A stretch of DNA of 64,000 bases from an uncultured Acidobacteriota bacterium (GTDB lineage Bacteria; Acidobacteriota; Vicinamibacteria; Vicinamibacterales; UBA2999): positions 1,283,876 through 1,347,875 of the forward strand of contig CAVRKI010000004.1 in NCBI GenBank assembly GCA_963721715.1. The letters are read 5' to 3'. The position numbers and the translations under genes are program-made. Below are positions 14,974 through 20,320 of this stretch, one piece after another; position 1 is the stretch's first letter, and the number at the start of each line of letters is the position of its first letter. The notes beneath the pieces were generated by a model. It was not told where the DNA came from. It worked only from the letters and a program-made list of their open reading frames with translations, and did not search any database.

Positions 14974-16533
14974 TCAGCCCGAGTCGAAGCGCGCGGTGAT
15001 GCAGGTTGCTGCGATGCAGCCCCAGCTCGCGCGCCGCGGCGGCCCAGTTCCCGCGGTTGCGGCTGACCGCGTCGAGAATGGCCTCGCGCTCGTACCGCTC
15101 GACCCGTTCGCCGAGCGAGCCACCGTTCGCCGGCGCATCCGACGCGCGCGCCCGCCGAGGGCGCCATCCCCTCGCACGGGGCGCACGTCGAGGTGCGGCG
15201 CATCCACCTCTGTCAGCTGCGCCCGGTCCCGCCCGAACGACGCGCGCAGCACCGCGCGGCCGACGATGTTCTCCAGCTCGCGCACGTTGCCCGGCCAGTC
15301 GCTCGAGCCGAGCAGCCGCATCGCGGCGGCGGTGAACCGCACGCCGACCAGTCCGAGCCGCCGCGCGGCGGCGTCGGCGAAGTGTGCCGCCAGCACCGGC
15401 GTATCCTCCGGACGATCGCGCAGGGCCGGGACGTGGAGCGGAAACGCCGCGAGGCGGTGATACAGATCCGCGCGGAAACGCCCGGCCGCGACCTCGCGTT
15501 CGAGATCGCGATTGGTGGCCGCGATCACCCGCACGTTCACACGGTGCGTCCGGTCTGAACCCACGCGCTGAATCTCGCCGTGCTGCAGCACGCGCAGCAG
15601 CTTGGGCTGGATCTCCAGCGACAACTCGCCCACTTCGTCGAGGAACAGGGTCCCGCCGTCGGCCACCTCGAACTTGCCGGCGCGGTCGCGGGTGGCGCCG
15701 GTGAACGCGCCCGTCACGTGACCGAACAGCTCGCTCTCGGCAATCGACAGCGGCAGCGCGGCGCAGTTCACGTGAATCATCGCCTCGTCGGCGCGAGCCG
15801 AGGCGGAGTGGACGTGGTGCGCCACCAGTTCCTTGCCGACGCCGGTCTCGCCGGTGATGAGCACGGACAGGTCGGAAGCCGCCACCAGCGCGATCTCCCG
15901 GCGCAGCTTGACCACGGCGGCGCTGGTGCCGAGGAGAGCGCCGCCACTCGACTCGGCGGCGGTGCGGAGCAGCTCCTTCGCCACCCGCCCACGATGCGCG
16001 GCCCGGCGTTCCAGCGCTTCGATCAGCGACGCGGTGCGCAGCGCCGCGCCGGCAAGGGCGCCGAGCGTGGCCAGCACCCGCGGGTCGACGTGATCGAACT
16101 GGTGCGGCTCGAGCGCGTCAGCCGTCAGCGCGCCCACGACCTCGCCGCCATCGGTGAGGGCGCAGCCAAGGCACGCATGCACCTTGTGCAACGGGCCCGG
16201 CGCCGCTTCGATCACGCCGTCGAACGGATCGGGCAAGGCGCTGTCGTCTGGAAACCGCACGGGCTCGGTCGAGCGCAGGATGACGTCGAGCCGAGGATGC
16301 TCGCGTGGCGCATACCGCCGGCCGAGCGCCTCGGCGGTCAGCCCATAGCCCGCCACCGGCACCAGTTCGCCGCCCTCGAGTCGGAGCAGACACGCGGCAT
16401 CACAGGGAATGAGCCGACGGACCCCGGCAATCAACCGCGCGTATCGGTCCGACGCCGCGAGCGACGCGGTCAAATCACGGGCGATGTCCAACAGGACTTC
16501 GAGCGACTTTGATTGTTGTGATTCCTGTAACAT
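14974..16533 (-). CDS. norR: Sigma54-dependent nitric-oxide-responsive transcriptional activator NorR
   Basis: 519 aa. N-terminal GAF domain with NorR-like sequence, AAA+ core with GETGVGKE and the TGAFTGA loop, and a C-terminal HTH. Confidence 0.85.
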
Positions 16534-16540
16534 GGTTGTC

Positions 16541-16551
16541 GTATCAGCAAC
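16541..16551. promoter_or_regulatory. Single candidate NorR box (GT-N7-AC)
   Basis: GTATCAGCAAC is the only GT-N7-AC match in the norR/ric intergenic region. Confidence 0.3.
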
Positions 16552-16614
16552 ACGAGAACGTTGTACGGATCATAACATCGCCTGCAAGTCATTGATTCGA
16601 TGAGGTCAACAACC

Positions 16615-17316: not shown

Positions 17317-17333
17317 ACTGATCGGGGATATTC

Positions 17334-18815
17334 ATGTCGACGATACTTCGCACTCATGCCGTCCCGTATGTGGTGGCGCTCGCGCTGTCGTTCGCCGCGG
17401 ACGCCGCGGCCGGTCAGTCCGTGCCCACCCTGGCTGGCCCGCCTGGATCGCCCGCGGTGGCCCTGCGAGAGGCGGTCGATCGCAACCCCGATCCGGCCAT
17501 CGTCGAGATCGACCTCGAAGCGCGCCTTGCCGAGGTCGAAGTGGAAGCCGGTCTCAAGGTGAAGGCATGGACCTACGATGGCGGCCTGCCGGGTCCGCTG
17601 ATCCGGACCAAGGTGGGCGATCGGCTGATCGTGCACTTCAAGAACCAGCTCGCCGCGCCCACCACCATCCACTGGCACGGCGTCCGGGTGCCGATCGAGA
17701 TGGACGGCGTTCCCGGCATCTCGCAGCCCGAGGTGAAGACCGGCGACGCATTCACCTACGACTTCGTGGTGCGTGATGCCGGGCTGTTCTGGTACCACCC
17801 GCACGTGATGTCCGCGGCGCAGGTCGGCTTCGGGCTCTACGGCGCGCTGCAGGTGGACGACCCGGATGACGGGGTCGGCGTGAAGGACGAGCTGACCCTG
17901 GTACTGAGCGACATCGGCTTCGACAAGTTCGGCTCGCTCGAGCCCGCCGACAGCGGCGGCCCCGCCGGCGAGGTGTTCGGCCGCGAGGGGCAGTACGTGC
18001 TCGTGAACGGCAGGCGCAAGCCGACCATCCGGATGCGCGCCGGCGCGCCGCAGCGATGGCGGATCGTCAATGCCGCCAAGAGCCGATTCTTCCTGCTGGA
18101 CATGGACGGGCAACCGTTCACCACCATCGGCGTCGACGGCGGCCTGCAGGAAGAGCCGGTCACCAGCGGCACGCTGCTCATCACGACCGGCGAGCGCGTG
18201 GACGCGATCATCGCGCCCACCGGCAAACCGGGCAGCACCCTGGTGATCCGCGCGATGCTCTACAACCGCGGCTACGGCAGCGTGCAGTATCGCGATGTCG
18301 AGGAGTTGCTGACGATTCAATTCACCGACGAGCCGCCGCTGCCCGTCAAGAAGACACCCGTCACCGTACGCCGTACCATCGTGCCCGTCAGCTCCACTGG
18401 GGCGACGCGCGTGCCGGTCGTGCTGACCTTGCCGCCTGCCGGCAAGGATGGCAAGTCGGAGTTCCGCGTCAACGGCGTGCCCTACTGGGAGGCGGCGCCG
18501 TTTACCGCGGCGCTCGGCGAGACCCAGATCTGGGAGATCAAGAACGACACCGACTGGGATCACCCCTTCCACCTGCATGGCTACTTCTTCATGGCGCTCG
18601 ACGAGAAGGATCAGCCGCTGCGTCCGCTGGCGTGGAAGGACACGGTGAACATCCCGATGAAGACCACCGCGCGCTTCCTCATCCTGTTCGACGAGCGGCC
18701 GGGTGAGTGGATGTTTCACTGCCACATCCTCGATCACGCCGAGGGCGGGTTGATGGGCACGGTCATGGTGGGGCCAGGCACAGGGGTCGGGCATACGCAC
18801 CACAAGAAGCCATGA
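17334..18815 (+). CDS. Three-domain multicopper oxidase (CueO/CopA-like), Sec signal
   Basis: 493 aa. Cu motifs IHWHGVRVP, WYHPH, HPFHLHG, HCHILDHAEGGLMG. Only 17 nt downstream of ric. Confidence 0.85.
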   Translation: MSTILRTHAVPYVVALALSFAADAAAGQSVPTLAGPPGSPAVALREAVDRNPDPAIVEIDLEARLAEVEVEAGLKVKAWTYDGGLPGPLIRTKVGDRLIVHFKNQLAAPTTIHWHGVRVPIEMDGVPGISQPEVKTGDAFTYDFVVRDAGLFWYHPHVMSAAQVGFGLYGALQVDDPDDGVGVKDELTLVLSDIGFDKFGSLEPADSGGPAGEVFGREGQYVLVNGRRKPTIRMRAGAPQRWRIVNAAKSRFFLLDMDGQPFTTIGVDGGLQEEPVTSGTLLITTGERVDAIIAPTGKPGSTLVIRAMLYNRGYGSVQYRDVEELLTIQFTDEPPLPVKKTPVTVRRTIVPVSSTGATRVPVVLTLPPAGKDGKSEFRVNGVPYWEAAPFTAALGETQIWEIKNDTDWDHPFHLHGYFFMALDEKDQPLRPLAWKDTVNIPMKTTARFLILFDERPGEWMFHCHILDHAEGGLMGTVMVGPGTGVGHTHHKKP

Positions 18816-20320
18816 CCCGCCATTCGTCGTGGGTGGGACTCGGGCTCGCCCGGCTGGCGTGTGCGACGCTGGCGTGGACCATCGGCCTCCCGGCCCACGC
18901 GGCAGTCGCCCAGAGTGCGTCCGGGCAGACACCGCCGGCGCCGTCACCCGCGTGGCAGGCCTCGGTCTCGAACCTCACGCGGGTGGAATCGTGGCGCTAC
19001 TTCGAGCCGCAGCCAGCCGGGGGAGAGCCCGACTACACCTTCCTGGGCAACCGCCTCCGGATGGAACTGCGCGGCCGATGGTCGCGTGCGCAGGTGACAC
19101 TGGCGGCCCAGTACGTCGGCTTCATCAGCCTTCCGGAAAACGCATCCAACCCTGGCCCATTCGGCACCGGCGCCCTCTACTTCGACCAGGGCGGCCGCCA
19201 CCAGAATCAGCAGGAGCTCTACCTGCGGTACGCCCACGTTCGCTTCCCCGACGTGGTGCGAGGCGTCGATCTGCAGGTGGGCCGCATGGCATACACCTCG
19301 GGCGCCGAGGCCCCCAGCGGCGTGCCCAAGATCGAGGCCGTGAAGCGACAGCGCCTCGATGCCAGGCTGGTCGGTGAGTTCGAGTGGTCCATTGTCCAGC
19401 GCGGCTTCGACGGCGTGCGTGTCGACCTGACGCGCCCGGCATGGCGGGCCACCGGCATCGCGTTCATGCCCACCCAGGGCGGGTTCGCGCGCGTGGCCGG
19501 CCCCACCATCACCGACCTCATCGTCGCCGGCGCCACGGTCAGCTCGCGATCGAGTGGCGCCACGCCGCGGCGCACACAAGTGCAGGGCTTCGCGCTCGCC
19601 TACGCCGACCATCGGCCGGTGACGCAGCGCCCCGACAACACCGGGCTCTCCGCGACGGAGGCGGATATCGACCTGACGACGGTGGGCGGCGCCGTCATCG
19701 GCGCGTATCCCGCCGGGCCTGGCGAGGTGGACGTCTTCGGTTGGGCAACCTACCAGGCCGGTGACTGGTACGGCCAGGATCACCGCGCCTTCGCGCTGGC
19801 GGCCGAGACCGGCTATCAGTTCTCGCGCGCCGCCTGGCGTCCCTGGCTGCGGGGCGGCTTCTTTCACGCGTCCGGGGACGGGTCGTCCTCGGACAGCACG
19901 CATGGAACGTTCTTCCCGATCCTCCCCACCGTGCGTCGTTTCTCCCAGACCACGGTCTACAGCACGATGAACCTGAACGACCTGTTCGTCTCCCTCCAGG
20001 CGCGCCCGCGCGCCGCACTGGGCCTGCGCCTCGACGTGCACCAGCTCACGCTGGCTTCGGCCGCCGACCTCTGGTACGCGGGCAGCGGCGCCACGCTCGG
20101 TGCGGGAACCACGTTCGGTTACGCCGGACGCCGGTCGAATGGAAGTACCCGCCTGGGCACCTCAATCGAGACCTCGGCCGACTACGCCATCACGCCGCAA
20201 GTCGCGGTCAACGCCTTCCTCGGCACCATCGGGGGTGGCGGCGTGGTGACCGGCACCTTCCGGGGAGACCGGCTCTGGTTCGGCTACATCGAGACGGCGC
20301 TCAGCTTCGGTAGTCGGTGA
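18812..20320 (+). CDS. Putative outer-membrane beta-barrel protein
   Basis: 502 aa. ATGA overlap with the MCO stop. Signal peptide ending PAHAAVA. Alternating-hydrophobic, Tyr/Gly-rich strands. Family not identified with certainty. Confidence 0.45.
   Translation: MTRHSSWVGLGLARLACATLAWTIGLPAHAAVAQSASGQTPPAPSPAWQASVSNLTRVESWRYFEPQPAGGEPDYTFLGNRLRMELRGRWSRAQVTLAAQYVGFISLPENASNPGPFGTGALYFDQGGRHQNQQELYLRYAHVRFPDVVRGVDLQVGRMAYTSGAEAPSGVPKIEAVKRQRLDARLVGEFEWSIVQRGFDGVRVDLTRPAWRATGIAFMPTQGGFARVAGPTITDLIVAGATVSSRSSGATPRRTQVQGFALAYADHRPVTQRPDNTGLSATEADIDLTTVGGAVIGAYPAGPGEVDVFGWATYQAGDWYGQDHRAFALAAETGYQFSRAAWRPWLRGGFFHASGDGSSSDSTHGTFFPILPTVRRFSQTTVYSTMNLNDLFVSLQARPRAALGLRLDVHQLTLASAADLWYAGSGATLGAGTTFGYAGRRSNGSTRLGTSIETSADYAITPQVAVNAFLGTIGGGGVVTGTFRGDRLWFGYIETALSFGSR

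Follow-up and report, generated by a model that had tools for sequence, protein, structure and literature searches.

A predicted NorR-controlled operon joining ric, a multicopper oxidase gene and an AlgE-like outer-membrane barrel gene in a Vicinamibacterales bacterium (Acidobacteriota)

Introduction

The regulons of the nitric oxide (NO) sensors NorR and NsrR are regarded as small and well defined, comprising norVW, hmp, norB, ric, hcp and nnrS. The NorR regulon has been described in some beta- and gamma-proteobacteria, and hmp, norB, ric and hcp are found under NorR in some lineages and under NsrR in others (PMC1274295). A multicopper oxidase (MCO) gene, ncgA, is part of the NsrR-controlled ncgABC-nirK cluster of Nitrosomonas europaea, an N-oxide tolerance cluster with a NO/nitrite-sensing regulator, in which this gene has no clear role (PMC6967387, PMC1274295). 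Here we describe a locus within a 64,000-nucleotide (nt) stretch of DNA, hereafter the window, from an uncultured Acidobacteriota bacterium of the order Vicinamibacterales (UBA2999). In this locus, norR is divergent from ric (ytfE), which encodes an iron-sulfur cluster repair protein, and ric is followed by the genes of an MCO and of an outer-membrane barrel. The anatomy and the conservation of the operon are described with high confidence. Co-transcription of its genes and their control by NO are predicted from the DNA with moderate confidence, and confidence in the substrate of the MCO is low.

The comparison set consisted of 80 species-level loci with relatives of the MCO, three contig-index places and 17 metagenome loci carrying the barrel, which are cited below by their L numbers. 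The homologues of the window were assigned to Vicinamibacterales, Acidobacteriota. L085 is an independent assembly of a strain 99.2% identical to the window.

Results

The divergent orientation of norR and ric proposed in the first-pass annotation was confirmed (norR from 16533 to 14945 on the minus strand, ric at 16654-17316; Table 1). The deduced regulator scored 606.3 bits against the NorR profile NF003451 (cut-off 476; the cut-offs given here are the curated NCBIfam equivalog thresholds), and its AAA+ domain matched PF00158 at 228 bits. In an alignment of NorR proteins that included E. coli NorR, the GAFTGA motif was invariant. The columns corresponding to R75, D96, D99, C113 and D131 (E. 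coli NorR numbering), which we take to be the ligands of the mononuclear iron in the sensory GAF domain of E. coli NorR, were invariant as well. The product of ric was recognized by NF008221 (260 bits, cut-off 254) and TIGR03652 (231 bits, cut-off 204.7). Its start was assigned to the ATG at 16654, preceded by the Shine-Dalgarno sequence AGGAG at 16644-16648, and not to the upstream ATG at 16600. The MCO carries all three Cu-oxidase Pfam domains. The two gene junctions were also as first described, with the MCO starting 17 nt after ric (ric stop at 17316, MCO ATG at 17334) and the barrel gene overlapping the end of the MCO gene in an ATGA (barrel ATG at 18812, MCO TGA at 18813-18815).

The region between norR and ric contained three tandem boxes of the pattern GTTG-N9-YAAC, an IHF-like bending site and a -24/-12 promoter motif. 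The GG and GC elements of the latter were located at 16616-16617 and 16628-16629, with the ATG of ric 24 nt after the GC. The box pattern occurred four times in the window (1.48 expected), and three of the four sites were upstream of ric. The IHF consensus had its single perfect match in the 64 kb at 16585-16597 (0.08 expected). The -24/-12 pattern by itself was no rarer than chance, with two matches in the window and 1.5 expected. When the norR-ric intergenic regions of 11 genomes were aligned (mean column identity 60%), the conserved blocks were the three boxes, the core of the IHF-like site, which as a whole was partly conserved, and the promoter, in which GGCA and TG were invariant. This complete and conserved enhancer architecture supports the earlier prediction of a NorR/sigma-54 promoter close before ric, and the position of box 1 over the first codons of norR fits autoregulation.

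Similar motifs were noted elsewhere in the window. A lone perfect palindrome matching the box pattern, GTTGCAGCCGATGCAAC, was present in a single copy at 45572-45588 with no sigma-54 motif found nearby, and is probably a chance match. A second good sigma-54 motif, GGCACACTGATTGCT, was located on the plus strand at 36635-36649 and is kept as GGCACATTGATTGCT in L001, just upstream of a gene for an AMP-binding enzyme. The window counterpart of this gene looked fragmented in the list of open reading frames (ORFs), and assembly indels are probable there.

Because the 17-nt gap and the ATGA overlap pack the genes so tightly, a single transcript is the natural reading of the locus. A promoter scan of positions 14000-21500 identified no sigma-70-like promoter, and no further sigma-54 motif was present within 16631-20607. 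The terminator search over 14000-21500 returned two hits only, which lay within the barrel gene and were at chance level. The proposal that ric, MCO and barrel share one transcript is supported by their spacing and by the lack of sigma-70-like or sigma-54-like sites between them, and judged by this anatomy they are most likely transcribed together.

Table 1. Positions of the genes and predicted regulatory elements at the norR-ric-MCO-barrel locus of the window
Feature	Position	Strand	Remarks
VIT1-family iron/manganese transporter gene	14154-14846	+	convergent with norR; syntenic in closest relatives
norR	16533 to 14945	-	GAF, AAA+ and Fis-type helix-turn-helix (HTH) domains; 1-nt frameshift in GC-rich linker (~15125-15190) as assembled
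Predicted enhancer box 1, GTTGTGATTCCTGTAAC	16515-16531		overlaps first norR codons
Predicted enhancer box 2, GTTGTCGTATCAGCAAC	16535-16551		outer arms form a perfect palindrome
Predicted enhancer box 3, GTTGTACGGATCATAAC	16560-16576		
IHF-like bending site, AATCAATGACTTG matching WATCAANNNNTTR	16585-16597	-	
Predicted sigma-54 -24/-12 promoter, GGCAT-N6-TGCT	16616-16630	+	GG/GC within GGCATCGATACTGCT
ric/ytfE, di-iron iron-sulfur cluster repair protein	16654-17316	+	NF008221, TIGR03652, Pfam ScdA_N and Hemerythrin
MCO, periplasmic, three-domain, Sec-type signal peptide, four copper motifs, no methionine-rich insert	17334-18815	+	Pfam and motifs
AlgE-like 18-stranded outer-membrane channel, signal peptide	18812-20320	+	PF13372, AlphaFold (AF2) model, Foldseek
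Tail of periplasmic nitrate reductase (nap) cluster, convergent with barrel	20301-24482	-	context
125-residue ORF of nap cluster tail	20301-20678	-	
Cytochrome c of nap cluster tail	20691-21101	-	
napB	21303-21791	-	
napA	21918-24482	-	

The arrangement was conserved in relatives, since norR divergent from ric and MCO, with or without qnorB or the barrel, was found in about 15 species-level genomes. The order norR-ric-MCO-barrel was shared by the window and L085 with L004, L005, L095 and L096, and ric-MCO-barrel was seen in L008, where it is cut by the contig end. The barrel was missing from the otherwise identical order in L001, L012, L015 and L034. In L011, L040 and L048, the NO reductase gene qnorB was located between ric and the MCO gene; L007 carried qnorB-MCO, again cut by the contig end. 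L006 retained a remnant of qNorB (83 C-terminal residues, ~7576-7824) between ric and the MCO gene behind a divergent norR, which is direct evidence for the deletion of qnorB inside the operon. Because of the ric-qnorB-MCO loci, the qnorB-MCO locus and the remnant, the MCO is to be seen as a companion of the NO reductase and not as a stand-in for it. The first-pass view that the MCO and the barrel take the place of an NO reductase is not supported by these loci; the MCO gene is an additional one at the distal end, which moves together with ric and qnorB.

In the neighbour-joining tree, the linked MCOs formed one clade (59 of 60 bootstraps), within which the window MCO grouped with those of L001 and L040 (60/60); among these three, only L040 has qnorB. 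No qNorB was found anywhere in the 64-kb window. The ric-MCO junction of the window was also aligned to the ric-qnorB and qnorB-MCO junctions of L048 in search of a deletion scar, and gave no traceable end points, the signal-peptide regions being different. In the simplest history, qnorB would have been lost repeatedly from an ancestral ric-qnorB-MCO operon, and the window would represent a qnorB-less derivative. In about 15 species, the MCO gene follows ric or qnorB at a short distance although the flanks vary. Since the flanking genes differ between loci, the core has been kept by more than the shared ancestry of a block. The ric-qnorB spacers of L048 (~5460-5540) and L040 (~5500-5580) contained short direct repeats, TTCGTCCTCATTC, in at least two copies.

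Outside the NorR-linked clade, the members of the MCO orthogroup were 53-72% identical and had other neighbours. In five species (L041, L047, L053, L060 and L066), the sole conserved neighbour of the MCO gene was the gene of an Rrf2-family regulator, placed divergently or in tandem. The one that was scored, from L041, had NsrR as its best NCBIfam match (124 bits, cut-off 182). The Rrf2-MCO interval of L053 contained GATGTATTTATAATACATC at 7847-7865, whose GATGTAT-N5-ATACATC is a perfect NsrR operator under the consensus gATGyAT-N5-ATrCATc (Rodionov et al., PMC1274295), and an operator with one mismatch was located just upstream of the Rrf2-MCO tandem in L047 (7396-7414). These two sites were the only matches to the NsrR operator with at most one mismatch in the 1.48 Mb of fetched loci, and the operator was degenerate in L041 and L060. 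As predicted from these sites, the pairing of an Rrf2 regulator with an NsrR operator is an independent second link of the MCO to NO sensing. The presence of NorR in one lineage and of NsrR in another is the strongest argument for functional NO control of the MCO.

Other kinds of control were indicated in further members of the orthogroup. In L044, a gene for a Crp/FNR-family regulator was divergent from a RIC-like gene, with the MCO gene directly after the latter. The motif TTGTCGTCGATATGACG was common to L042 (~3250-3290) and L044 (~7100-7140), in both cases between a divergent upstream gene, which in L044 is the Crp/FNR-family regulator, and the RIC or RIC-like gene; it is a candidate DNR/NnrR/HcpR-type site. 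NorR boxes were looked for before the MCO genes of genomes without an adjacent norR, and none were found. Good sigma-54 promoters (GGCAC/T-N5-TTGCA) were located approximately 70-130 nt upstream of the MCO genes of L029, L030, L031, L033 and L035, with no NorR-type boxes, and must belong to some other enhancer-binding activator. Minus-strand sigma-54 motifs were present before the DUF411-side genes in L002, L017, L018, L021, L026, L028 and L032.

The four His-rich copper motifs of the MCO, including HCH...H...M, were invariant in 81 MCO orthologues, and by these motifs the protein has the same copper sites as any ordinary O2-reducing MCO. It scored far below the cut-offs of both the CueO profile (166 bits, cut-off 525) and the copper_res_A profile (187 bits, cut-off 479), which argues against a cuprous oxidase of the classical kind. 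Its nearest relatives of solved structure were metallo-oxidases and laccase-like MCOs, from Thermus, Campylobacter (McoC) and Pseudomonas thermotolerans, and CueO. The sister clade of the linked MCOs (58/60 bootstraps) adjoins genes for DUF411, which we take to be the copper-resistance protein CopG. Both the solved relatives and the DUF411 neighbourhood speak for a metal role of the MCO, and a connection with iron is hinted at by the VIT1 transporter, by RIC with its di-iron site and by the RirA-like score of the L041 Rrf2 regulator given below. A second MCO encoded in the window (41847-43208) was considered as a paralogue of the same system and rejected, as it was 26% identical and belonged to a separate cytochrome c-MCO module. 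That module occupies 41847-43715 on the minus strand, and an orthologous pair adjoins the barrel or nap clusters in L087, L091 and L092 (Vicinamibacterales). The cytochrome c at the end of the nap cluster, beside the barrel gene, is a paralogue of the cytochrome c of this pair.

The only Pfam match of the barrel was PF13372 (Alginate_exp, 84.9 bits), and on this family membership its reading as an analogue of CopB/PcoB was rejected. The AF2 model had 18 strands and a predicted local distance difference test score (pLDDT) of 74.9. Foldseek returned AlgE as the top match (E ~1e-16, 12-14% identity), followed by OprD/Occ channels. Orthologues of the barrel, 50-77% identical, were located inside or beside nap clusters in L087, L091, L092, L099, L101, L102, L104-L106 and L109 and beside nrfHA in L086 (Luteitalea sp. 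TBR-22) and L093, and further orthologues directly followed the MCO gene. The window barrel combines both settings, being behind the MCO gene and convergent with nap. Given the location of orthologues in or beside nap or nrfHA clusters, the barrel is not a specific partner of the MCO. We infer that it is an outer-membrane nitrate/nitrite (anion) channel whose translation has become coupled to that of the MCO within this clade. A literature search on alginate-export barrels with nitrate reductase returned nothing relevant.

Beyond napA, the minus strand of the window (24942-32964) encodes a second molybdopterin oxidoreductase (25483-27912), a NapB-like dihaem protein, a multihaem cytochrome, a cytochrome b and a COX1-family protein (31345-32964). 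The block from the molybdopterin oxidoreductase to the COX1-family protein also precedes the barrel in L087 and L091.

Discussion

On balance, we regard the locus as a NO-stress operon of a Vicinamibacterales bacterium, an explanation that we hold to be fairly probable as a whole. NO would be sensed by NorR at the iron of its GAF domain, and NorR would bind the three tandem enhancers spanning its own start codon. With the help of an IHF-type bend, it would activate the sigma-54 promoter at 16616-16630, from which the transcript would run through ric, MCO and barrel. The operon would have been derived from an older ric-qnorB-MCO unit by loss of qnorB. NO regulons would have taken up the lineage's conserved periplasmic O2-reducing MCO on two or more occasions, under NorR here and under an NsrR-like Rrf2 repressor in another branch. 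Acting as a metallo-oxidase, the MCO would clear the periplasm of Cu(I) and/or Fe(II), metals that could turn Nap-derived nitrite into NO and worsen the damage done by NO to iron-sulfur proteins. The AlgE-like barrel would belong with the adjacent nap genes (elsewhere with nrf genes) and pass nitrate/nitrite across the outer membrane. For the MCO taken alone, we favour, at about even odds, a Cu(I)/Fe(II) oxidase of the periplasm by which metal-driven formation of NO from this nitrite and metal-aggravated NO damage would be kept in check.

Several observations weigh against this explanation. The GTTG-N9-YAAC boxes depart from GT-N7-AC, the NorR core of proteobacteria, and because of this difference the box is best read as a diverged recognition motif. 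Both co-transcription and induction by NO are read from the anatomy of the locus. The Rrf2 regulator of L041 scored nearly as well against RirA (123 bits) as against NsrR, both scores being below the cut-offs. L013, L014 and L045 are inside the clade of linked MCOs and lack the linkage altogether, and an MCO-barrel pair occurs without norR or ric in L010 and L088-L090, behind a different, AT-rich control region. A methionine-rich segment, which is typical of prokaryotic metallo-oxidases (PMC11111587), is lacking in all members of the MCO orthogroup (10 methionines in the 466 mature residues of the window protein; an orthogroup maximum of 3-4 per 30-residue window), and the MCO has no Tat motif, which weakens its reading as a cuprous oxidase. 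Finally, norR is frameshifted in this assembly, with the HTH out of frame with the rest.

Turnover of NO or other N-oxides by the MCO itself we consider doubtful. As an alternative account of the whole locus, which is likewise unlikely, the MCO would act on nitrogen oxides, either by oxidizing NO to nitrite in the periplasm in an O2-dependent manner or with an N-oxide as electron acceptor, and the barrel would move the nitrite. The wiring of the MCO to two different NO sensors, its position directly behind qnorB in several genomes, the missing methionine-rich segments (PMC11111587) and the ties of the barrel family to nitrate/nitrite enzymes would all agree with this. There are also precedents, as N2O reductase activity is cited for Pyrobaculum McoP (PMC11111587) and ceruloplasmin is termed a nitric oxide oxidase in reviews. 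Against it, the copper sites are those predicted for an ordinary O2-reducing MCO, and approximately 70% identical orthologues adjoin the copper-related DUF411 genes or are found in unrelated contexts. No sequence signature of such an activity was seen in the MCO; to our knowledge, none is known for NO-oxidase or N-oxide activity in MCOs. The furthest-reaching form of this idea, in which the MCO would be a dedicated NO consumer (an O2-dependent NO oxidase/nitrite synthase, or an enzyme with an N-oxide acceptor) repeatedly recruited by NorR, NsrR and Crp/FNR-type regulons in Acidobacteria, with the barrel as a nitrate/nitrite-specific channel, seems to us quite unlikely.

The linkage could also be positional only, with the MCO and the barrel being part of an island of respiratory or N-oxide genes and expressed independently of NorR from a promoter of their own inside or after ric. 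This account, which we consider very unlikely, draws on the pairs of L010 and L088-L090 with their own control region, on other clades whose MCO genes have their own sigma-54 promoter and no NorR boxes, and on nap and nrf genes as the usual partners of the barrel. It is opposed by the tight ric/qnorB-MCO spacing, which persists in about 15 species although their flanks differ, and by the lack of a promoter-like site in ric or in the 17-nt gap. The predicted independent wiring of the NsrR type also argues that NO control of the MCO has been selected. In L010, the AT-rich stretch before the MCO-barrel pair (~7810-7870) contains two direct repeats, CTTTCAAGTCCTATTTTG and CTTTCAAGTTCTAGTTTTG, and resembles a response-regulator binding site.

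Decay of the system in this strain, in which norR would be a true frameshift pseudogene without DNA-binding domain, qnorB would be lost and ric-MCO-barrel would be silent or otherwise expressed, is highly improbable: the frame from the ATG at 16533 does lose the HTH, and qnorB, which is missing here, is found in L040 and L048, the closest relatives, but ric, MCO and barrel are full length and reading in the -1 frame gives an intact HTH. The similarity of the assembled norR frame fades after approximately residue 455, and the Fis-type HTH is encoded in the -1 frame at 15124-14945, with a conserved core identical to that of relatives. In L085, the linker has a net gain of 1 nt, by which the AAA+ domain and the HTH stand together in one norR ORF. 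Over 12 kb, 21 gap openings separate the window from L085, as is typically seen with consensus indel errors. Since L085 restores the frame and the two assemblies differ to this extent, we treat the norR frameshift as probably an assembly or consensus error. The presence of the norR gene thus stood as first annotated, and its end did not: 14974 is the stop of the frameshifted frame, and the corrected end is 14945. Between the convergent VIT1 and norR genes, approximately four tandem copies of AGGAACT were noted at 14931-14960, with an indel of L085 inside them.

Since relatives place this MCO under a second predicted type of NO sensor, it would seem to be a so far overlooked component of the NO-stress response of bacteria. 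Full-text searches returned no paper that links NorR to a multicopper oxidase, nor did searches on Vicinamibacteria, NO reductases and MCOs turn up a description of the operon in Acidobacteria. The occurrence of the MCO under both predicted types of sensor in an abundant and poorly studied soil phylum suggests that NO defence has a periplasmic branch that has gone unnoticed, which would work either through the control of metals (the Cu/Fe chemistry that makes NO or worsens its effects) or through the direct oxidation of NO. If the MCO were indeed a NO-consuming enzyme, it would add a new enzyme class, and the barrel a new type of channel, to bacterial NO detoxification and to the soil nitrogen cycle. 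The barrel is a concrete candidate for an outer-membrane nitrate/nitrite channel. The gain or loss of qnorB within an otherwise fixed operon bears on the production of N2O by soil Acidobacteria.

Among the known systems, the NorR/sigma-54 NO-detoxification units norR-norVW of E. coli and norR-norA-norB of Ralstonia have a similar control region, in which norR is divergent and an IHF site and a -24/-12 promoter accompany three enhancer sites in tandem. In E. coli K-12, the norR-norV region was read as three GTCA-N3-YGAC boxes followed by TGGCAC-N5-CTGCA. The layout in the window also agrees with what Rodionov et al. (PMC1274295) describe for NorR sites. In the norR-norA-norB unit of Ralstonia, the first target is the RIC homologue NorA, followed by a NO reductase, and L011, L040 and L048 are organized in exactly this way. 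Unlike both of these units, the present one belongs to Acidobacteriota, has GTTG-N9-YAAC in place of GT-N7-AC, and carries an MCO gene as the conserved distal gene, sometimes with the barrel gene after it; in the window, qnorB is missing.

The NsrR-controlled ncgABC-nirK cluster of Nitrosomonas is the nearest precedent, and its closest parallel is offered by the Rrf2-MCO loci with NsrR-type operators. The operon of the window, in contrast, has neither nirK nor the cytochrome genes ncgBC. The Nitrosomonas enzyme is presumably a two-domain trimeric MCO, whereas the window MCO has three domains. With CueO and with PcoA-PcoB/CopA-CopB, the locus shares a periplasmic three-domain MCO of the same structural family, a gene for an outer-membrane protein after that of the MCO and, in the sister clade, the proximity of DUF411. 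It differs from them in that the MCO lacks a methionine-rich segment and a Tat signal, that the barrel is an AlgE-like PF13372 protein without a match to CopB/PcoB, and that the regulator is a NO sensor and not CueR, CusRS or CopRS. The barrel resembles AlgE in its above-threshold Pfam match, its 18 strands and its best fold match. It is, however, only 12-14% identical to AlgE, and its neighbours are nap/nrf genes or the MCO gene, with no alginate biosynthesis genes nearby. The regulatory part of the locus is thus a NorR system, new to this phylum and diverged in its box, and its cargo is new, consisting of a conserved MCO, an optional AlgE-like barrel and an optional qnorB.

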